DNA of 64,000 nt from Hyphomicrobiales bacterium. GTDB lineage: Bacteria; Pseudomonadota; Alphaproteobacteria; Rhizobiales; Aestuariivirgaceae. Of the stretch, positions 4,551-32,965 are shown piece by piece. Both the position numbers and the translations under genes were made by a program. Within the stretch, counting starts at the first letter, position 1. The number at the start of each line of letters is the position of its first letter. Under the pieces are notes generated by a model, which was not told the DNA's origin, did not search any database, and saw only the letters and a list, made by a program, of their open reading frames with translations. The stretch spans positions 13,871 to 77,870 of the forward strand of contig JANOVS010000214.1 of NCBI GenBank assembly GCA_031417515.1. Direction: 5' to 3'.

Positions 4551-5762
4551 ATGAATACGCACAACCATCAATTCAACGAGATTGTTTTGGAACTGCCACG
4601 TGCAGTCGATCATGAAGTTGCGGGCGACATTGAAAAAGAGTCAGTGTTTGTTTCGCCCTACATCGATCGTATTTTTGTAAATGCCGACGGGCTTACAGCG
4701 CGCGTCGTGACCCGGCCTGGTGCAGACCTTGTAGAAATCAAGGAAAAAGCCGCCCGCTTTCTTGAAGTGATGGTGAAGCAGGTTTCTGGTTTTGAAATCA
4801 AGGTGTTCATTGACACCAAACGCAAAGACACCGGCCCATATTTCACCGGCGTGAACGATGAACTGGTAAAGCGTGGCTGGATGCATGACTATGGCAAGGG
4901 TCAAGTGGCCTACAGCGGCCCAGTTTTGAAACTGGCGAAGCTGATCAACGACAAGTCGGGCGAACTCTACAAAGCGGCCTTTAATGCGAAGGACTCGCAT
5001 TTCCCCGCGATGATTGACGCCGACACTTTGCACAAGTGCGGATATTTTGACTCGCATCCCAATGCAGTAACCTTCGTTGGCAACGTCGTTGAGGATTTTG
5101 ATGCGATTGAGGAATTTCGTCGTGCCAATTCTTGTTCTGAAGGCGCCCTGTTGCCAAAGCAGGAACACATCCACATCGATGGAATGTGTTTGAACCCGGC
5201 AGCATGTTTCCCGTGCTATCCAACGCTTACCGGCCAGGACTTCAAGGAGGGCCAATGTTACACGTGGCTTGGCCGTGTATTCCGCTATGAATCGCGCAAC
5301 ATCAATGGTCTTGACCGCTTGTATGAGTTCAACGTTCGTGAACTCGTGTTTGTCGGCAGTGAAGAATACGTGCGCAGTTGCCGCGCCAAGGCTTTGCCCA
5401 TCGTGGAAGAGTTGGCTTCATTCATCGACATTGATTGCCAGGTCCAGACTGCAACCGATCCGTTTTTTGCAACTGTTTCCGCCGCAAAGAAATTCTGGCA
5501 GGCGGCACAAGAAGTTAAAAACGAAATAAAAATTCCTGCGCTTGGAAATGACGGCAGCCAAAAAATGTTGGCTTGCGGGTCGATCAATTTGCACGGGAAT
5601 TTCTTCGGCAAGCGCTTTGGCTTTACCTGTGAAAATGGCGAACCTGCGCAAACAGGTTGCGTGGGACTTGGCATTGAACGTTGGGTTCTTGCCGCCTTTA
5701 CGCAGCACGGCTTTGACGAAATGCGCTGGCCTGAAGCCGTTCGAAACAACATTTTCAAATAA
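4551..5762 (+). CDS. amino acid--[carrier protein] ligase, class-II (SerRS-like) aminoacyl-tRNA synthetase homolog lacking a tRNA-binding arm
   Basis: ATG at 4551 lies after the MBOAT stop; the ORF-track start at 4431 overlaps the MBOAT gene. Class II motif 2 is VFRYESRN...YEFNVRE and motif 3 is GCVGLGIERWVLAAF. Cys residues (AACFPCYP, QTGCVG) sit where atypical SerRS-type enzymes bind Zn. At 403 aa there is no N-terminal coiled coil. Confidence 0.8.
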   Translation: MNTHNHQFNEIVLELPRAVDHEVAGDIEKESVFVSPYIDRIFVNADGLTARVVTRPGADLVEIKEKAARFLEVMVKQVSGFEIKVFIDTKRKDTGPYFTGVNDELVKRGWMHDYGKGQVAYSGPVLKLAKLINDKSGELYKAAFNAKDSHFPAMIDADTLHKCGYFDSHPNAVTFVGNVVEDFDAIEEFRRANSCSEGALLPKQEHIHIDGMCLNPAACFPCYPTLTGQDFKEGQCYTWLGRVFRYESRNINGLDRLYEFNVRELVFVGSEEYVRSCRAKALPIVEELASFIDIDCQVQTATDPFFATVSAAKKFWQAAQEVKNEIKIPALGNDGSQKMLACGSINLHGNFFGKRFGFTCENGEPAQTGCVGLGIERWVLAAFTQHGFDEMRWPEAVRNNIFK

Positions 5763-25369: not shown

Positions 25370-26578
25370 TCAGTTTTCCGTTCTTTCAGTTTGAAAATGG
25401 CCCATCCGCTCATGCTTGCTGGCGAGATAAGAGGCATTGAAGGGATTTGGGGGGATGACCAGTGGAATGCGCTCAGTCACATCAATGCCGAGTTCCTCAA
25501 GGGCTGAACACTTGAGCGGATTGTTTGTCAAAAGTCGCACCGCCCTGACGTCAAGTGCCTTGAGGATATGGGCCGCCGGAGCGAAATCACGCATGTCAGG
25601 CGCAAAGCCAAGGCGCAAATTTGCCTCAACGGTGTCGTGGCCTTGATCTTGTAAAGCATAGGCCCGGACCTTGTTTGCAAGTCCGATACCGCGACCTTCA
25701 TGATTGCGAAGATAGATCACGGCACCACCAGTGCTTTCACCCACTCGACGCAGTGATTCCTGAAGCTGCGGTCCGCAGTCACAACGCAGCGATCCCAAAG
25801 CTTCTCCGGTCAGACATTCCGAATGGACGCGCACCAGCGGCGTTTTCCCCAGCGGATGCTTGACTATTGCGAGATGTTCCACGCCATCGAGAACACTTCG
25901 AAATGCATGGATACGTAATGGTTCTTCGGTGTAGATGGTGGGTAGTTCGGCTTCGTCCACTTTTTCCACCAGCACTTCAGTTTTCTGCCTCTGGCGAACG
26001 ATGTCCTCAATCGTGAGGATCGGGAGATCATGAATTTTCGCAAATTGATCAAGATCATCGCGGCGCGCCATCGTGCCATCGTCACGCATGATTTCGCAGA
26101 TCACCCCGGCAGGTCGCAATCCTGCCAAACGCATCAGGTCAATGGCACCTTCCGTATGACCACGACGCTTGAGAACGCCGCCTTCAACTGCGCGCAGCGG
26201 AAAGATATGGCCGGGCATGACGACGTCACCGGCCTTTGCTTCGGGATCGCAGGCAGCGGCAATGGTGCATGCACGATCAGCAGCTGAAATGCCCGTTGTG
26301 ATTCCATCGCGCGCTTCAATCGAAACCGTGAACGCGGTTGATCGGCGTGCTTTGTTATCTGTTGTCATAGGCGGCAAGCCAAGCTTGTCGACCTGTGCCG
26401 ATGCCATGGGCAGGCAAATCAGGCCGCGGCCAAAGCGAGCCATGAAATTCACGGCTGCTGCATCAGCATATTCTGCCGCCATGACGATGTCGCCTTCATT
26501 TTCGCGGTCTTCGTCGTCCACCAAAATAATCATTCGGCCTTGGCGAAGGTGTTCGATGGCTATTGATAGGCTTGACAT
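25370..26578 (-). CDS. ribBA: bifunctional 3,4-dihydroxy-2-butanone-4-phosphate synthase / GTP cyclohydrolase II
   Basis: 402 aa. Motifs are DDEDRENEGD, GHTEGAIDL, RVHSECLTGEALGSLRCDCG and EGRGIGL. Confidence 0.95.
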   Translation of the reverse strand: MSSLSIAIEHLRQGRMIILVDDEDRENEGDIVMAAEYADAAAVNFMARFGRGLICLPMASAQVDKLGLPPMTTDNKARRSTAFTVSIEARDGITTGISAADRACTIAAACDPEAKAGDVVMPGHIFPLRAVEGGVLKRRGHTEGAIDLMRLAGLRPAGVICEIMRDDGTMARRDDLDQFAKIHDLPILTIEDIVRQRQKTEVLVEKVDEAELPTIYTEEPLRIHAFRSVLDGVEHLAIVKHPLGKTPLVRVHSECLTGEALGSLRCDCGPQLQESLRRVGESTGGAVIYLRNHEGRGIGLANKVRAYALQDQGHDTVEANLRLGFAPDMRDFAPAAHILKALDVRAVRLLTNNPLKCSALEELGIDVTERIPLVIPPNPFNASYLASKHERMGHFQTERTEN

Positions 26579-27165
26579 AAACGCTCCACGTATTTGGCCA
26601 TCACGTCCACTTCGATATTCAGAACATCGCCGGGCTTGGCCGCATTCAGGTTGGTGTTTGCAAAAGTGTGTGGAATGATCATCAGGCCAATCCGCGATGG
26701 GCCTCCCGTCACATCATCAATGCTGTTGATGGTGAGGCTGATGCCATCCAGCGCGATTGAACCTTTTTCCACACAGTAGCGTGCAAGGTGCTGTGGAATC
26801 TCCACCGCAAGCCGCCACGCACCATCTTCAACTGTCATGGACGTAAGCTTCCCCAAAGCGTCGACATGGCCTTGCACCATGTGTCCGGACAGTCGCGTAT
26901 TGAGGCTGACTGCGCGCTCCAGATTGACCGGCGTTCCAAATGCCAGCCGACCGAGATTGGTTCGCGCCAATGTTTCTGAACTTGCAAAGAATGTTGCCGT
27001 TGCTTTTTCGCCCAGTGCTGCGACAGTCAGGCACACGCCGTTTACCGCCACACTCTCTCCAAGGACCAAGTCGTTGTAACCAGTAGCAAGTGTGCAGGTA
27101 AGAGACCCGGCGGTATTCGCGATGTCCTCCACTGTTCCTATTCTGTCGATAATGCCTGAGAACAT
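26560..27165 (-). CDS. ribE: riboflavin synthase (alpha chain)
   Basis: MFSGIIDRIGTV..., an internal repeat with VNGVCLTV / LDGISLTI, and 201 aa. Confidence 0.9.
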   Translation of the reverse strand: MFSGIIDRIGTVEDIANTAGSLTCTLATGYNDLVLGESVAVNGVCLTVAALGEKATATFFASSETLARTNLGRLAFGTPVNLERAVSLNTRLSGHMVQGHVDALGKLTSMTVEDGAWRLAVEIPQHLARYCVEKGSIALDGISLTINSIDDVTGGPSRIGLMIIPHTFANTNLNAAKPGDVLNIEVDVMAKYVERLCQAYQ

Positions 27166-28127
27166 CAGTGACTTTCCCTTCTGATGATCTCAATGTGATC
27201 ATCGTTTTCTGTTTGTGTTATCCGAACACACTCGTCCCAGAATGTGCTCGCGAGGACGTGGGAGGTGAATGTTGGCCCTGCTTCGACAAGCACCTCCAAT
27301 CCGCCGCGTTGAACCACCATTCGCAGCTCGACTTCCAAATCGTCAGCAATTTGGACATCGAACCCACGCGATCTTGAAACATCGATGTAGCTTGCCGGAA
27401 TGCGTTGCCGTCTGTCGAACAACACCAATTCGCGCCGTTTGCCGGGAATATCTGGCGCATGACGTACCGTGAAGAGTGGTTGATCCGCCAGAACAGTTCC
27501 CGAGCCAGTGAAAATTGCATCGGCACGCCGCCGCAACTGGTGTGCCAGAAGTAGAGATGCAGGTGACGTAAAAGTCTTTCGGCCCACGGGCGGGATCATG
27601 TTGCCCTCAGCGTTGAAAGCCTGTTTCACCGTGACCCACGGCAAACCATGGATAACAGCCTTTGCAAATGGCGCGATAAGACTGGCCAGAGCCTTCTCTG
27701 CGCTCCCGCCGAATTGACGAACACCCAGTCCTGCAGTGGCAAGTCGGGCAAGGCCGCCACCTTTGACGCCAGGATTGGGATCCATGGTGCCCGCGACAAC
27801 AAACTGTGCCGTTGTGGAGAGTATGGCCTCGGTGCATGGCGGCGTGCGGCCATGATGGTTGCACGGTTCAAGTGTGACAACGATAGTGTGGATGCGGGCG
27901 TCTACGCCGATGTTCTTTGCGTTTTTGATGGCCAAGGCTTCGGCATGCGGCTGGCCCACCCCGCAATGCGCGGCAGTTGCCAAAACCTCACCGTGTTGAT
28001 CGAGAAGCGTGCAGCCGACTGGCGGGTTGGGAGCCGTTGCTCCTTCGTGTTCTCGTGCTGCATCAAGCGCCAACGCCATGGCTCTGGCGAGGATGTGATC
28101 TGGAAGCGGTGTTGAATGTTTTTCCAT
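27165..28127 (-). CDS. ribD: bifunctional riboflavin biosynthesis deaminase/reductase RibD
   Basis: The deaminase Zn motif is HAE...LEPCNHHGRTPPC, followed by a C-terminal reductase half. It is the first gene behind the FMN riboswitch. Confidence 0.9.
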   Translation of the reverse strand: MEKHSTPLPDHILARAMALALDAAREHEGATAPNPPVGCTLLDQHGEVLATAAHCGVGQPHAEALAIKNAKNIGVDARIHTIVVTLEPCNHHGRTPPCTEAILSTTAQFVVAGTMDPNPGVKGGGLARLATAGLGVRQFGGSAEKALASLIAPFAKAVIHGLPWVTVKQAFNAEGNMIPPVGRKTFTSPASLLLAHQLRRRADAIFTGSGTVLADQPLFTVRHAPDIPGKRRELVLFDRRQRIPASYIDVSRSRGFDVQIADDLEVELRMVVQRGGLEVLVEAGPTFTSHVLASTFWDECVRITQTENDDHIEIIRRESH

Positions 28128-28279
28128 TGGACCTGTTGCGTTTCGTCACAACAGGGCGATGGACCTGCAAACAGCAAACGCCAAGTTCTGTACGCGGGTA
28201 CAGGACCGAACCTATAACTGTTCGCACTCACGTTGCCGCAGCGCCCATGGGGCCCTGCATGACGAAAGTCGATCCATTT

Positions 28280-28431
28280 GTTCTCTTTCATCCGGACTAT
28301 ACCGTCGGCCCCGGAATTACACCGGGTCTGCTGACACCCAGACAAGGAATTTCCCCGTCCAGGCCGCTCGCGGGCTTCTGGACATTCATCCAGTTTACCG
28401 CCGGTGGGGAGTTTCACCCCGCCCTGAGAAC
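28280..28431 (-). promoter_or_regulatory. FMN riboswitch (RFN element)
   Basis: The minus strand reads GTTCTCAGGGCGGGGTGAAACTCCCCACCGGCGGTAAAC...AGCCCGCGAGC...GTCAGCAGACCCGGTGTAATTCCGGGGCCGACGGTATAGTCCGGATGAAAGAGAAC. All conserved RFN blocks and the P1 pairing TTCTC/GAGAA are present. Confidence 0.9.
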
Positions 28432-28622
28432 TTGACACGTCCTTAGCGGGATGCTTCGAATTAAGCAACAGCCCACACGCCAAACATGATCTGGCATGCG
28501 TTCAAATCAACCAGATCATGAATTGTTCCGGTAGTGTATCAGTTTGAAATCCAACGCCCAAATCCACCTATCGCAAGCCGTCTCGACTTCCTATATGCTT
28601 ATCGGAAAGTGCAGGAGCAATT

Positions 28623-28829
28623 ATGGACCTTAAAATCACTAGTTTGGAATACGCCACCTTAGAGCCTTACTTGGCGGGTGTTCTCGCCGACGTTGAACGC
28701 GGACATATTGACAGAAGAACGGCGCTCCCCATGCTCATGGGGCCGCTTAAGCGTATTCTAAGCGGCAATGGACAGGGCGTTTTTGACGAACTCACAACTG
28801 TGATGCAAAGCTGGAGTAAGCGCGGATAA
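28623..28829 (+). CDS. hypothetical 68-aa protein (cassette ORF A)
   Basis: AGGAG lies 5 nt upstream of the ATG. I recognise no motif. Confidence 0.4.
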   Translation: MDLKITSLEYATLEPYLAGVLADVERGHIDRRTALPMLMGPLKRILSGNGQGVFDELTTVMQSWSKRG

Positions 28830-28980
28830 TGCCTAAAGGCCCCAAAGGCTGGACTGCCTAAAAAATACAAAAAATTAATATCTTAGTGGAGTCCTTGGCG
28901 CGACACGTTAACGACTTGTCAATGCCTTATTGGCAACCTATCTTGTGGTTCTGTGTTTTGGCAATGCAGGGAGAGTTACA

Positions 28981-29274
28981 ATGCGAGATATGAAAAAAAT
29001 TGCCAAAATCGTCAAAGAGGTTTTGGCAAGCGATTTTGATAACATAAAGATCATTGAAGTTCGGGTACGTGATGATTTGGATTCCGAAGGTGAAGAAGTA
29101 TTGCGCGTTGATGTGATATTTGAAGGCGCGCGCAAAGACGTGGACGTTGCCCGTCTGACGGGTGCTGTCCGACACGTTCGCCTCAAGCTGTATGAGGCAG
29201 ACGAAAGAGCATTTCCTGTTATTTCGTTTATTTCAAAGAAAGATGCTGGGGTTTCTGAGTTTGTTGCCACGTGA
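28981..29274 (+). CDS. hypothetical 97-aa acidic protein (cassette ORF B), possible partner/antitoxin of ORF C
   Basis: GGGAGAG lies upstream of the ATG at 28981. The segment EVRVRDDLDSEGEEVLRVDVIFEG is vaguely reminiscent of a minimal-nucleotidyltransferase strand-acidic-strand pattern but lacks the GS motif. It overlaps ORF C by 32 nt. Confidence 0.45.
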   Translation: MRDMKKIAKIVKEVLASDFDNIKIIEVRVRDDLDSEGEEVLRVDVIFEGARKDVDVARLTGAVRHVRLKLYEADERAFPVISFISKKDAGVSEFVAT

Positions 29275-29737
29275 TCTTATTGCGACGGCCTTTGATTTGG
29301 CCGATGCAAATAATAAGAAACCGCGCCAATCTCATTTACTTAGGGCGATAAGCACCACTTACTATGCAATGTTTCATGCGCTGGCCAGGTGTTGCGCCGA
29401 CACCATGATCGGAACAAACGGAGCATCAAGAAGTAAACCAGCTTGGCAACAAGTTTATCGTTCTCTTGAGCACGGGCAATGTAAAGAATCCTGCAAAAAG
29501 CGCGATAAAATGGAGCGCTTCCCTGCTGAGATACAAGACTTTGCAAATCTCTTTATTTCCATGCAAGAGAAGCGGCATAAAGCAGATTACGACCCGACAG
29601 AGAGAGCGTATAAATCCTCTGTGCTGCTGGACATAGATCAGGCACAGCTTGCCATAAAGCGGTTTGAAGCTGCTCCACTTAAAGACCGAAGAGCATTTGC
29701 GGCATGGGTTTTGTTCAAGCCGCTGCGGAAAATATAA
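29243..29737 (+). CDS. HEPN-like alpha-helical protein (cassette ORF C)
   Basis: 164 aa from the ATG at 29243. It is predicted all-helical (SHLLRAISTTYYAMFHALARCCAD...). The motif EKRHKADYDP followed by a helical QAQLAIKRFEAA resembles the R-x-x-A-[DE]-Y motif of HEPN (PF05168-type) domains. Its stop TAA ends on the first base of the right inverted repeat. Confidence 0.5.
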   Translation: MLGFLSLLPRDLIATAFDLADANNKKPRQSHLLRAISTTYYAMFHALARCCADTMIGTNGASRSKPAWQQVYRSLEHGQCKESCKKRDKMERFPAEIQDFANLFISMQEKRHKADYDPTERAYKSSVLLDIDQAQLAIKRFEAAPLKDRRAFAAWVLFKPLRKI

Positions 29738-29846
29738 TTTCAAACTGATACACTACCATTGTTCCGTGAGTGGAGCGTCTCAAACTGAGATCTTATCGTC
29801 ATTCAACACCCTGAATAGGATTGCTAACGTGATACAAAAGCTACGA

Positions 29847-32240
29847 TTACAGATTGATTGACTTCAGCCGGATGGCATTGCCGATGACACTCACGGACGA
29901 GAGCGCCATGGCCGCTGCTGCGATCATCGGGGACAGCAAAAGACCGAAGACGGGATAGAGCACGCCTGCCGCGATTGGCACACCGGCCGCATTGTAGATG
30001 AAGGCAAAGAACAGATTCTGGCGAATATTGTTCATCGTGGCGCGTGACAGCGTGACCGCCTTGGCAATGCCATTGAGATCACCTTTCAGCAACGTGATGC
30101 CAGCACTTTCCATGGCAACATCGGTGCCTGTGCCCATGGCAATGCCAACATCAGCGGCGGCCAAGGCAGGCGCGTCATTTACCCCATCACCGGCCATGGC
30201 CACAACGTGTCCCTCGCGTTTGAACTTGGCGACGATGTCAGCTTTTTGATCTGGCAGAACATCGGCTTCAACGTCAGCAATGCCAAGTTTCCGGGCGATG
30301 GCATTTGCGGTGGTGCGGTTGTCGCCCGTCAGCATGATAATTCTAATGCCTTGTGCGCGCAGGGCTGTCAGTGCCGCTGGCGTGGACGCCTTGATCGGGT
30401 CTGATATGCCGAACACACCAGCCGCCTTGCCATTCACGGCCATGAATATGGCGGTCGCACCTTCATTGCGGAGTGTTTCAGCACTTGCGGCCAATGCGTT
30501 TACAGGGATGCTGAGTTCGCTCAGGAAGTTTGCATTGCCAAGGGCGATGCGCTTCCGCTCGACCATGCCGATTGCACCTTTGCCAATGGGTGAATCAAAG
30601 CCCATGACTTTCACCAAGGCAATGCCGCGGGACTTGGCAGCGTTGACAATGGCGGCGGCGAGGGGATGTTCGCTGGCTTGCTCAACGCTGGCGGCCAATC
30701 GCAACAGTTCAGTTTCTTCGATACCTTCAGCAGTGATGATTGAAGTGACGGCAGGTTTTCCCTCCGTCAAAGTGCCGGTTTTATCAACAACGAGCGTGTC
30801 GACTTTTTCCATGCGCTCCAGGCTTTCGGCGTTCTTGATCAGCACGCCCGATTGTGCGCCACGACCAACCCCCACCATGATTGACATGGGCGTGGCAAGG
30901 CCAAGCGCACAGGGGCAGGCAATGATGAGAACAGCAACGGCGGCAACCAAACCATAGGCATAGCGTGGTTCTGGTCCCCAAATCGACCATGCAGCAAATG
31001 CCGCGATCGCTACAGCCAACACCAGCGGCACAAACCATCCCGACACACGGTCGGCCAGTCGTTGGATGGGTGCGCGGCTGCGTTGCGCATCGGCGACCAT
31101 CTGCACGATACGCGCCAGCATCGTGTCGCGACCAACTTTTTCCGCTGACATGATAAAGCTGCCTGTGGCATTCAAGGTTCCGCCAATCAGTTTAGCGCCA
31201 ACGTCTTTCGACACTGGCATCGATTCACCCGTCACCATTGATTCATCAAGAGTGGCGCGACCTTCGATCAACACACCATCAACCGGAACTTTTTCACCGG
31301 GTCGAACCCGCAAGCTGTCGCCCGCAACAATCAAAGCGATTGCTACATCTTCTTCGGTGCCGTCGGCATTCACGCGCCGCGCCGTTTTCGGTGCCAGTCC
31401 GAGAAGGGCCTTGATGGCACCTGAGGTCTGATCACGGGCCCGCAGTTCCAGCACCTGACCCAGCAGCACCAATACAGTGATGACAGCAGCCGCCTCAAAA
31501 TAGACGGCGACCGAGCCATCAGGCTGACGAAAGGCAGGCGGGAAAATCTGCGGCATCACCGTTGCGATGATACTGTAAATCCAGGCGATGCCAGTGCCCA
31601 TGGCAATCAGTGTAAACATGTTGAGATTGCGGGTTCTCAACGATTCAAACCCGCGCACGAAGAAAGGCCAACCCGCCCACAACACCACAGGAGTGGCAAG
31701 GCCCAATTGAATCCAATTATTCGTCTGTCTGCCAAGCGTCATCATCAAGCCAGTGATGTGTCCGCCCATTTCCAATGCAAGCACAGGCAATGCCAGCACC
31801 AAGCCAATCCAGAATCGCCGCGACATGTCGATCAGTTCATGGTTGGGCCCGGTTTCAGCCGTAACAACAAGGGGTTCCAAGGCCATGCCGCAAATCGGGC
31901 AGGAGCCCGGACCAACCTGCCGGATTTCGGGGTGCATCGGGCAGGTAAACTCAGTTCCTTCCGGCATCGGTTCAGTCGGTTCTTGGGCAACAGGCTCAAG
32001 GTATTTCAGCGGCGTTGCAACAAACTTGCTGAGACAACTGGCACTGCAGAAATGATACGCCACCCCCTGATATTCAGCATGATGGGGCGTGGTTACAGGG
32101 TTCACGGTCATTCCACAGACCGGATCAATGGCTGACTGTGTTGTCTCCGGTTGTTGGTGTGAATGAATTTTGGTTTGTGAGTGCGTCATGCTTTGATCTT
32201 GGAGTCCGGAGTTTCTGGCCATTTTGTGCTGTCCCTTCAT
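29847..32240 (-). CDS. copA: copper(I)/silver-translocating P1B-type ATPase with N-terminal YHS/TRASH and CPxH...CPICGM metal-binding modules
   Basis: Motifs are DPVCGMTV...[33 protein letters not shown], the TM CPC ([13 protein letters not shown]), DKTGTLT and GDGVNDAP. The start is uncertain; an alternative ATG lies at 32189. Confidence 0.9.
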
Positions 32241-32251
32241 TTTGGTTTCAC

Positions 32252-32488
32252 TCAGCTCTTCAGCACGCGACTGCGTTCTTCGAATTCGGTTTTGTCGATT
32301 TCGCCTTTTGCGAAACGCTCCTTGAGAATGTCGGGCGCTGAATTCCGGCCTTTACCCGCAAAGTTGCCCGTATTTTGACTCAGCCACTTGACCAGCAGCA
32401 TGATGGCCGCAACCGTCACGGCAAGGACCACGATCATAAAAAATGGTCCGAAAAACATGTTGTAGCCACCATCGTTCCACCACATCAT
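32252..32488 (-). CDS. SHOCT-domain small membrane protein
   Basis: 78 aa with one TM and the C-terminal [22 protein letters not shown] (SHOCT motif). It lies 11 nt upstream of the ATPase gene. Confidence 0.7.
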
Positions 32489-32632
32489 TTGAAATCTCCA
32501 TTCTAATCAGTTGCAACGGATTTGCGGTCCCGGATATCCATGCCTCCGTGTGAGAATCGGAGTTTGTTGGCGGTTTGTGGAAAACGCTTGTCAGTCTTGC
32601 GAGTCATGATGGCAGATTGCCAGTTACCAGCA

Positions 32633-32646
32633 TTGATCTCTGTCAA
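32633..32646. promoter_or_regulatory. FNR/FixK-type box TTGATCTCTGTCAA (9/10)
   Basis: It lies in the 477-nt non-coding region upstream of SHOCT-copA. The centre is about 151 nt from the SHOCT ATG. Confidence 0.35.
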
Positions 32647-32965
32647 GTGCTGCAGCCCGCGCCAATAACTGATCGTGCCACAGGGTCGCAGGCGGAATTG
32701 TTCATTATCGAATGCGATGGACGTTCCATTGTGACCGGCTTTTGAACTCAGTCAGGATGACTGAGGAGGAAGCCCTCTAAATCGAAATGCGCTTTTAACG
32801 GCTTGTTGGTTGCGGAAGCCTGCAACCATCAGTACTTGCGGTCACGAGGAAGCCATGGTGTGTAAGCGGCGCGTTTGGCGCGCCTGGTATCGCAAGCGCA
32901 GAAGATTGCCGAGATTGCACTTTCATTCGTCTGTCGCAAACTCTTCCATCACGGAAAGAACGGAC

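Follow-up and report, generated by a model that had tools for sequence, protein, structure and literature searches.

The window analysed here is a stretch of 64,000 nucleotides from a Hyphomicrobiales bacterium (assembly GCA_031417515.1, contig JANOVS010000214.1), and it contains, between the 3' end of copA and the promoter region of the rib operon, an element of 1,228 bp (28530-29757) that is bounded by inverted repeats and carries three small open reading frames (ORFs). This location had been given in the original prediction, made from the letters alone, and it was confirmed: copA ends at 29847, and a flavin mononucleotide (FMN) riboswitch (28276-28435, minus strand, 118 bits over the full model) lies ahead of ribD. 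Since the riboswitch is complete and the element lies 95 bp upstream of it, the rib leader is intact. The rib promoter was not located by a consensus scan, and a search against Rfam gave nothing significant inside the element. The three ORFs encode 68, 97 and 164 amino acids (aa), and the final base of the last stop codon (TAA, 29735-29737) coincides with the outset of the right repeat, as had also been predicted. The coordinates of all features are collected in Table 1.

Ends of the element and the lineage that shares them

The 21-bp terminal inverted repeats are exact, with 21 of 21 positions complementary, and they are not a product of chance, since no match to the repeat arose in 100 dinucleotide-preserving shuffles of the window; the window contains no further copy of the 21-mer at up to three mismatches. 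The nonamer ATTGTTCCG, which had been taken for a 9-bp target duplication, occurs in the window only at 28522-28530 and 29758-29766, and its left copy shares the last base, G 28530, with the inverted repeat. The direct repeat is thus real, but its ninth base is the repeat's own first G, so that the true, non-overlapping target-site duplication (TSD) is the 8-mer ATTGTTCC. The interior is AT-richer than its surroundings, in line with the prediction, with a GC content of 0.41-0.51 within the element versus 0.55-0.60 in the flanks. The tip of the repeat, GGTAGTG, the length of the repeat and the 8-bp TSD fit the IS1 family of insertion sequences (IS) in ISfinder, whose members have inverted repeats of about 20-25 bp with a GGnnnTG tip and TSDs of 8-9 bp.

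The identical 21-mer was found at no fewer than 119 loci by an exact-match scan with one genome per species, and its hosts belong to at least 13 bacterial phyla among the matches listed. They include Alpha-, Beta- and Gammaproteobacteria, 'Deltaproteobacteria', Verrucomicrobiota, Bacteroidota, Chloroflexota, Acidobacteriota, Gemmatimonadota, Latescibacterota, Planctomycetota, Spirochaetia, Chlorobiota, Binatia and Tectimicrobiota. At these loci, the similarity breaks off directly inside the 21-mer. Elements were considered complete when an inverted partner of the 21-mer, with no more than 5 mismatches, and a direct repeat of 8 bp, with no more than 1, could be recognised, and 37 elements were delimited in this way. 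All 37 have the 8-bp duplication, as do loci L137, L138 and L139. Fifteen of the complete elements resemble miniature inverted-repeat transposable elements (MITEs) and measure 68-730 bp, three are of intermediate size and have no transposase (L096, L068 and the element of the window), and the remaining 19, of 2.1-4.2 kb, each contain an ORF of about 300 aa. The layout had been read as the footprint of transposition, and this reading is borne out by the same ends bounding elements with 8-bp TSDs elsewhere. The search for these ends and for an autonomous IS carrying them, which had been proposed along with it, led to widespread IS1-family relatives.

The last codons of the 300-aa ORF (...ISN*) lie within the right repeat. 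Its product matches the Pfam family DDE_Tnp_IS1 (PF03400) with 29.7 and 39.6 bits at a cut-off of 24.1, and its best NCBIfam model is NF033558 (IS1), with 55-72 bits. These transposases have an N-terminal helix-turn-helix (HTH) and three invariant acidic residues, namely D in QCDEIW, D in QLTTDG and E in VERxN. They are about 50-90% identical to each other, yet the 21-bp end is identical over at least 13 phyla. Cultured isolates of Acidiphilium, Hoeflea and Mesorhizobium carry plasmid-borne homologs (60-66% identity) that the Prokaryotic Genome Annotation Pipeline labels 'IS1 family transposase', and the Acidiphilium and Hoeflea copies are complete elements, each with its own 8-bp TSD. From the DDE transposase, the GGTAGTG tip and the 8-bp TSD together, it follows that the ends belong to a lineage of single-ORF, passenger-carrying IS1-family elements.

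Classical IS1 of E. coli contains two ORFs, insA and insB', joined by a programmed -1 frameshift. The transposase of the present lineage differs in being encoded by one continuous ORF of about 290-320 aa with the N-terminal HTH and with no insA/insB frameshift, and the lineage presumably corresponds to the single-ORF or ISMhu11-like branch of IS1, able to carry passengers, in the classification of ISfinder. With the IS1 family it shares the DDE transposase (in the relatives), repeats of about 21 bp with the GGnnnTG tip, the 8-bp TSD and a size that reaches about 4.2 kb through passengers; the copy in the window departs from the family in retaining only 15 transposase codons, that is, no transposase of its own. 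The passengers of the lineage (46 proteins) mostly have XRE-HTH, P63C, ImmA/IrrE peptidase, SDH protease, RhuM, SocA/Panacea, NYN, Gp49/HigB-like, DUF4258 and MqsA-like domains, and the cargo is rich in toxin-antitoxin, phage and regulator genes. A literature search found no paper on ISMhu11 and none on toxin-antitoxin passengers of the IS1 family.

Non-autonomous members of the lineage were also observed in several copies on one chromosome. In that of a Dehalococcoidia metagenome-assembled genome (MAG; OZ241923.1), near-identical MITE-like copies of about 65 bp with the 21-bp end are present at four loci (L026, L044, L061 and L070), the first of them with a perfect 8-bp TSD, and another Dehalococcoidia MAG likewise has a MITE-like copy (L060). 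Such copies with TSDs, several of them on a single chromosome, show that the lineage mobilises and amplifies non-autonomous derivatives.

Deletion scar, parental form and the cargo pair

No transposase gene was found by tblastn in the element or anywhere in the 64-kb window. The predicted lack of a transposase accordingly holds for an intact gene, and the element is non-autonomous, as had been supposed, but a 15-codon 3' remnant of a transposase gene is present. Two short blastn matches inside the element pointed to a deletion scar, in which the first 20 nt of a small gene conserved in the lineage run, through the microhomology CCAAAGG, into the last 15 codons of the transposase gene (junction sequence ATGCCTAAAGGCCCCAAAGGCTGGACTGCC), ending with the stop TAG at 28884-28886. 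For comparison, the transposase of L135 ends in ...VAPKAGRPKNYKKSIT*. Of 21 elements that bear a transposase gene, 12 or more have the small gene (MPKGPKGEKRPADVIGNAVKVMR...) after the leader.

The undeleted order of genes is preserved at L135, on a metagenomic contig: the 3' end of the small gene, a P63C gene on the opposite strand, the transposase gene, homologs of ORF2 and ORF3, and an exact right terminal inverted repeat (IRR). Over window positions 28839-29757, the nucleotide identity of L135 is 83%, and the same right half occurs at L122 (85% identity). The scar and the order at L135 indicate that one microhomology-mediated deletion of about 2.3 kb turns an L135-type element into the element of the window. 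This parental type gave rise to another derivative that lacks the transposase, L137, which lies at a different site with the TSD AAGTTTGT; its deletion extends from 46 bp inside the left terminal inverted repeat (IRL) to about codon 230 of the transposase, and ORF2 and ORF3 are retained. Judged by their sequences, the two deletions are independent of each other, and the copy in the window is an internal-deletion derivative, not a purpose-built cassette.

Table 1. Features of the element and its borders in the 64-kb window
Feature	Positions	Strand	Basis or remarks
Left 8-bp target-site duplication, ATTGTTCC	28522..28529		8 bp in 37/37 complete lineage elements
Left terminal inverted repeat (IRL), GGTAGTGTATCAGTTTGAAAT	28530..28550	+	Exact inverted match; 0 in shuffles; tip GGTAGTG
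IRL-proximal leader	28551..28622	+	Degenerate palindrome TATGCTT-N6-AAGCATA; ribosome-binding site of ORF1, AGGAG, 28613-28617
ORF1, 68 aa, near-orphan	28623..28829	+	First gene after leader; stop overlaps ATG of small-gene remnant (TAATG)
5' remnant of conserved small gene (first 20 nt, MPKGPKG), ATGCCTAAAGGCCCCAAAGG	28829..28848	+	Identical to small-gene start in L058 (5044-5280, -); close to L088
3' remnant of IS1-family transposase gene, last 15 codons, APKAGLPKKYKKLIS	28839..28886	+	Aligns with 3' ends of L135, L137, L058, L088, L110 and L075
Microhomology CCAAAGG, deletion junction	28842..28848	+	End of small-gene remnant, shared with 3' part of transposase gene
Promoter-like TTGTCA-17-TATCTT	28916..28944	+	Upstream of ORF2; consensus scan, alone not above chance; conserved in L122, L135 and L137
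ORF2, 97 aa, putative antitoxin or neutraliser	28981..29274	+	Conserved upstream partner of ORF3
ORF3, 164 aa from ATG 29243, AF0298-like HEPN-T, putative RNase toxin	29243..29737	+	Family profile, motif and model
Right terminal inverted repeat (IRR)	29737..29757	-	Exact match; encodes last transposase codons ...ISN* in autonomous relatives
Right 8-bp target-site duplication, ATTGTTCC	29758..29765		Matches left copy

The deletion variant of the window was also followed in the population. The exact ORF2 protein is encoded on 16 contigs, and in 16 of 16 the element occupies the same rib/copA site; ten loci that were fetched (L120, L121 and L127-L134, compared with window positions 25530-32757) are 98.8-100% identical at this locus, and two MAGs, GCA_043729985.1 and GCA_043736835.1, are included among the 16 contigs. 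Over its 1,228 bp, the element shows 0-2 single-nucleotide polymorphisms (SNPs). They are confined to ORF3 and are not disruptive, and ORF2 and ORF3 are intact in all ten variants. In the adjacent 3-kb flanks, 17 and 25 SNPs were counted, the population being about 1% diverged. The rate of the flanks predicts about 8.6 SNPs for the element (Poisson P of about 0.009 for two or fewer); the low diversity would fit either strong constraint or a later, more recent spread of the element by recombination.

ORF3, whose homologs point to a start at TTG 29261 and hence to a protein of 158 aa, is a member of a protein family in which 196 or more sequences, 154-167 aa long, were found; many of them are labelled UPF0332 by the Joint Genome Institute, and none has a precomputed Pfam domain. 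The family profile (31 members) matched 2hsb (AF0298) in the PDB with E=5.8e-5, followed by 9xbd (E=0.0074) and 9xbc (E=0.061). In the alignment, ...KRHxADYD lies over ...RNRSDYD with the R-x3-D-Y residues in register, and R111, D115, Y116, H45 and H77 are invariant in the 31 sequences. The AlphaFold2 model of ORF3 is all-helical, with a predicted local distance difference test (pLDDT) score of 91.7. The HEPN-like character predicted for the largest ORF is thus supported, by the profile match to 2hsb and the UPF0332 labels in particular. A literature search found no paper linking UPF0332 and HEPN by name.

In AF0298-like HEPN-T proteins, the histidine of the HEPN motif is replaced, and a second conserved histidine in the insert between helices 2 and 3 possibly forms an alternative active site (PMC3710099). 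Their features recur in ORF3, which has the N-terminal S-T-A-Y-Y-A-M-F-H, D in place of the motif H and an extra conserved H upstream. It is distinguished from them by about 30 additional residues, by lying outside the detection of Pfam PF05168 and by another partner. A resemblance to MNT-HEPN modules (MntA-HepT, type II/VII; MNT, minimal nucleotidyltransferase) is seen in the small upstream gene that overlaps the HEPN gene, in the mobility of the pair and in the presence of HepT among the Foldseek matches. However, ORF2 is not a minimal nucleotidyltransferase, and ORF3 has R-x3-D-Y and no histidine of the Rx4-6H type. The HEPN-like reading stands, therefore, but the pair is not a canonical MNT-HEPN module.

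ORF2 lies directly upstream of an ORF3 homolog and overlaps it in every context fetched (L122, L123, L125, L126 and L135-L137), including contexts free of IS, namely between murJ and trpS at L123 and between terminase and portal genes at L125. At the latter locus (4711-5471, GCA_965233725.1), the pair has the position of a 'moron' in a head module resembling that of a prophage or gene transfer agent, with the large terminase gene on one side and the portal gene on the other; it thus travels on phage-type elements besides IS. The model of ORF2 (pLDDT 84.9) has an alpha-beta-beta-alpha-beta fold; an MNT antitoxin was ruled out by this fold and by the absence of the nucleotidyltransferase motif (GS...DxD, pol-beta). 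The ratios of nonsynonymous to synonymous substitution rates, 0.13-0.22 for ORF2 and about 0.1 for ORF3, correspond to purifying selection. Neither Pfam nor NCBIfam nor PADLOC gave a match for ORF1, ORF2 or ORF3, and in PHROGs one family of unknown function was matched by ORF3 only. By analogy, ORF2 and ORF3 are probably a toxin-antitoxin-like pair, in which a HEPN toxin is accompanied by a partner of a new type.

Origin of the element and role of its cargo

Summarizing these data, it may be concluded that 28530-29757 is very probably a non-autonomous relic of an IS1-family transporter IS with passenger genes, from which the transposase gene was deleted and in which a toxin-antitoxin-like pair was kept. 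An ancestor had the order IRL, leader, ORF1, small gene, P63C gene on the opposite strand, DDE transposase gene, ORF2, ORF3 and IRR. The 8 bp ATTGTTCC were duplicated when a member of this lineage inserted in the space that separates the rib promoter, with its FMN riboswitch, from the 3' end of copA. A single internal deletion between two CCAAAGG repeats took about 2.3 kb, so that the small gene runs, at its codon 7, into the final 15 codons of the transposase gene; both 21-bp ends and the ORF2-ORF3 pair were left intact. The copy in the window would move only if a related transposase were supplied in trans. ORF3, as an AF0298-like HEPN-T protein, would most likely act as an RNase-type toxin, and ORF2 as its neutralising partner of a new, non-nucleotidyltransferase kind. 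Being addiction-like, the pair would account for the survival of one and the same module in two independent transposase deletions, that of the window and that of L137.

The kind of element, an IS1-family or non-autonomous IS, is known, and that of the window is a further member. Mobile insertion cassettes, such as MIC231 of the Bacillus cereus group, and MITEs are non-autonomous derivatives of IS. Like them, the element of the window lacks a transposase and encloses other genes between inverted repeats of the IS type, with a TSD at its borders, and the lineage has MITE-like members; in contrast to the cassettes, its variant is present at one site only and its explicit deletion scar indicates recent descent from an autonomous element. 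IS derivatives that carry passenger genes are termed transporter IS (tIS; PMC9330008). The parental forms (L135, L058, L139 and others) agree with them in having passengers between the inverted repeats, and the copy in the window differs in being a transposase-deleted remnant.

Alternative explanations of the locus concern the way in which the element arrived and the nature of its ends. The cassette could already have been transposase-less on arrival and have been placed by a transposase acting in trans, as a true mobile insertion cassette; this is what the original prediction had proposed, and we consider it unlikely, although both inverted repeats are perfect, the TSD is intact, other transposase-less cargo elements exist (L096, L068 and L137) and the lineage clearly mobilises non-autonomous derivatives, as seen from the 15 MITE-like elements with TSDs and the four Dehalococcoidia loci. 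Against it, the deletion variant occurs at one site only, in all 16 contigs and all ten fetched loci, so that an insertion followed by deletion on the spot is no less likely than mobilisation in trans; the different deletion of L137 shows that such deletions recur independently, the 64-kb window harbours no transposase gene, and the data are compatible with either order of deletion and insertion. There is practically no chance that the inverted repeat serves the rib or copA genes in regulation or structure, for instance as a long-range stem or an operator pair. Its position between a riboswitch-controlled operon and copA might suggest such a role, but it is refuted by the distribution of the identical 21-mer over at least 119 unrelated contexts in many phyla, always paired at distances of 68 bp to 4.2 kb with 8-bp TSDs and overlapping the transposase stop codon in autonomous copies, and the FMN riboswitch is complete without the repeat.

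For the cargo, it is possible, if doubtful, that ORF2 and ORF3 form a non-toxic accessory or regulatory module, for example with an inactive, binding HEPN domain, which is carried passively. The missing canonical Rx4-6H histidine of ORF3, the lack of Pfam or PADLOC matches and the uninformative fold of ORF2 are in favour of this, as is the fact that some HEPN domains are non-catalytic (PMC3710099). On the other hand, R-x3-D-Y together with the invariant H in the helix-2/3 insert is the alternative active site proposed in the same work for AF0298-like HEPN-T proteins; moreover, the pair is under strong purifying selection, has a tight overlapping two-gene layout, is mobile both as a 'moron' and in IS, and was kept through two independent transposase deletions. 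In our opinion, a broader proposal can be put forward only tentatively, namely that ORF2-ORF3 is an undescribed toxin-antitoxin or defence pair, in which an AF0298-like HEPN-T RNase is checked by a 97-aa partner of new fold and which provides the addiction module of an IS1-family lineage that spans phyla with near-invariant 21-bp ends and is itself a general vehicle of toxin-antitoxin and defence cargo. If true, the addiction-module reading would explain that the same module outlived the transposase twice, in the window and in L137.

Several results weigh against the interpretation of the element as a toxin-bearing IS1-family relic. The lineage transposases remain under the NCBIfam IS1 equivalog cut-off (55-72 versus 100 bits), which by sequence score makes them a divergent branch, and the lineage may already carry a name in ISfinder. 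The insertion is deduced from the inverted repeats, the TSD and family membership only, and the search for an empty site, also suggested with the original prediction, recovered none: the exact 24-mer ATCATGAATTGTTCCGTGAGTGGA across the predicted uninterrupted site (...ATCATGAATTGTTCC/GTGAGTGGAG...) was not present in metagenome contigs, no record was found for the exact RibD protein with the long start, and the closest relatives of RibD, with 88% and 70% identity, gave no orthologous empty site, their contigs breaking off upstream of ribD at a distance below 200 nt. ORF3 has no Pfam HEPN match (PF05168, E up to 1), and the top Foldseek matches of its model, although HEPN proteins (2hsb, 4nqf and HepT), are weak, with template modelling scores of 0.3-0.5 and E of at least 0.08. 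The model of ORF2 has only generic PDB matches and no recognisable fold relative, the PADLOC search was negative for both proteins, and the toxin and antitoxin roles are assigned by analogy from gene order, overlap, mobility and HEPN precedent.

For the host genome, the element is of little consequence, being an inert intergenic IS relic with the rib leader and copA intact. It provides a natural example of a cargo IS decaying by microhomology deletion to a transposase-less cassette that retains an addiction-like pair, and this took place twice independently. The uncharacterised pair of a HEPN protein and its partner is cheap to test. The little-described IS1-family lineage, with ends identical over at least 13 phyla and passengers mostly of toxin-antitoxin, phage and regulator types, can be useful for IS annotation and for studies of cargo spread.

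Leader, ORF1 and other members of the lineage

The leader next to IRL is 74-84% identical to those of L105, L088, L064, L090, L058, L107, L051 and L110. In a sub-lineage (L105, L088, L064, L090, L058, L051, L110 and L115), the first 100 nt or so inside IRL contain TTGACAGCCTATCGCA and, after about 14 nt, TTCCTATATGCTTAGCGGAAAGCATAGGAG. TATGCTT, which is invariant in the leader alignment, makes a 7-bp palindrome just ahead of the first ribosome-binding site, and its 3' arm is broken in the window (AAGTGCA). The palindrome could be an operator or an RNA hairpin controlling the expression of passengers and transposase. A canonical sigma-70 promoter in the leader is not claimed, as TTGACA and TATATG are about 25 nt apart.

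For ORF1, an exhaustive HMMER search recovered two small relatives of 73 aa with 43-45% identity; matches in FG-GAP and leucine-rich repeat proteins were regarded as spurious. It had no match in PHROGs and no relatives in metagenome contigs or in the fetched loci.

The conserved small gene, present at L058 (5044-5280, minus strand), L088 (422-655, plus strand) and L033 (1447-1734, plus strand), encodes about 75-95 aa with the motif MPKGPKGEKRPADVIGNAVKVMR...GGxARAxxLxxxxRxxIAxKAAxxRW. Its product, which matched nothing in Pfam or NCBIfam, may belong to the core of the IS lineage as an accessory or regulatory protein. A motif like that of its C-terminus is found N-terminally in the P63C and RhuM passengers.

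A target bias was noticed in the flanks of L001-L119. Of 125 ends, 21 have a TCAA that begins exactly 19 nt outward from the repeat tip, compared with 0-4 at any other offset, giving the pattern (G)TCAA(G)-N14-15-inverted repeat. In elements of known orientation, the motif is on the outer side of the end next to the transposase. As the inverted repeat itself reads TCAA followed by 14 nt to the tip, the target may mimic the contact of the transposase. The flanks in the window (28490-28529 compared) have no TCAA motif in register.

In other members of the lineage, the slot between the transposase gene and IRR is also occupied by gene pairs. At L048, it holds a SocA/Panacea pair. Overlapping pairs with no Pfam match were found in this slot at L139 (4976-5814, Hoeflea sp. 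IMCC20628 plasmid NZ_CP011481.1; 78 and 201 aa) and L043 (2291-2865; 85 and 106 aa), and they are candidates for further toxin-antitoxin-like cargo. The RES-Xre pair next to the Acidiphilium element was ruled out as cargo, being located outside IRR. The RES-domain toxin gene, as annotated at this locus (L138, 4928-5769, Acidiphilium multivorum plasmid NZ_CP041717.1), extends with its 3' end into the right repeat, and the insertion may have changed the C-terminus of the toxin.

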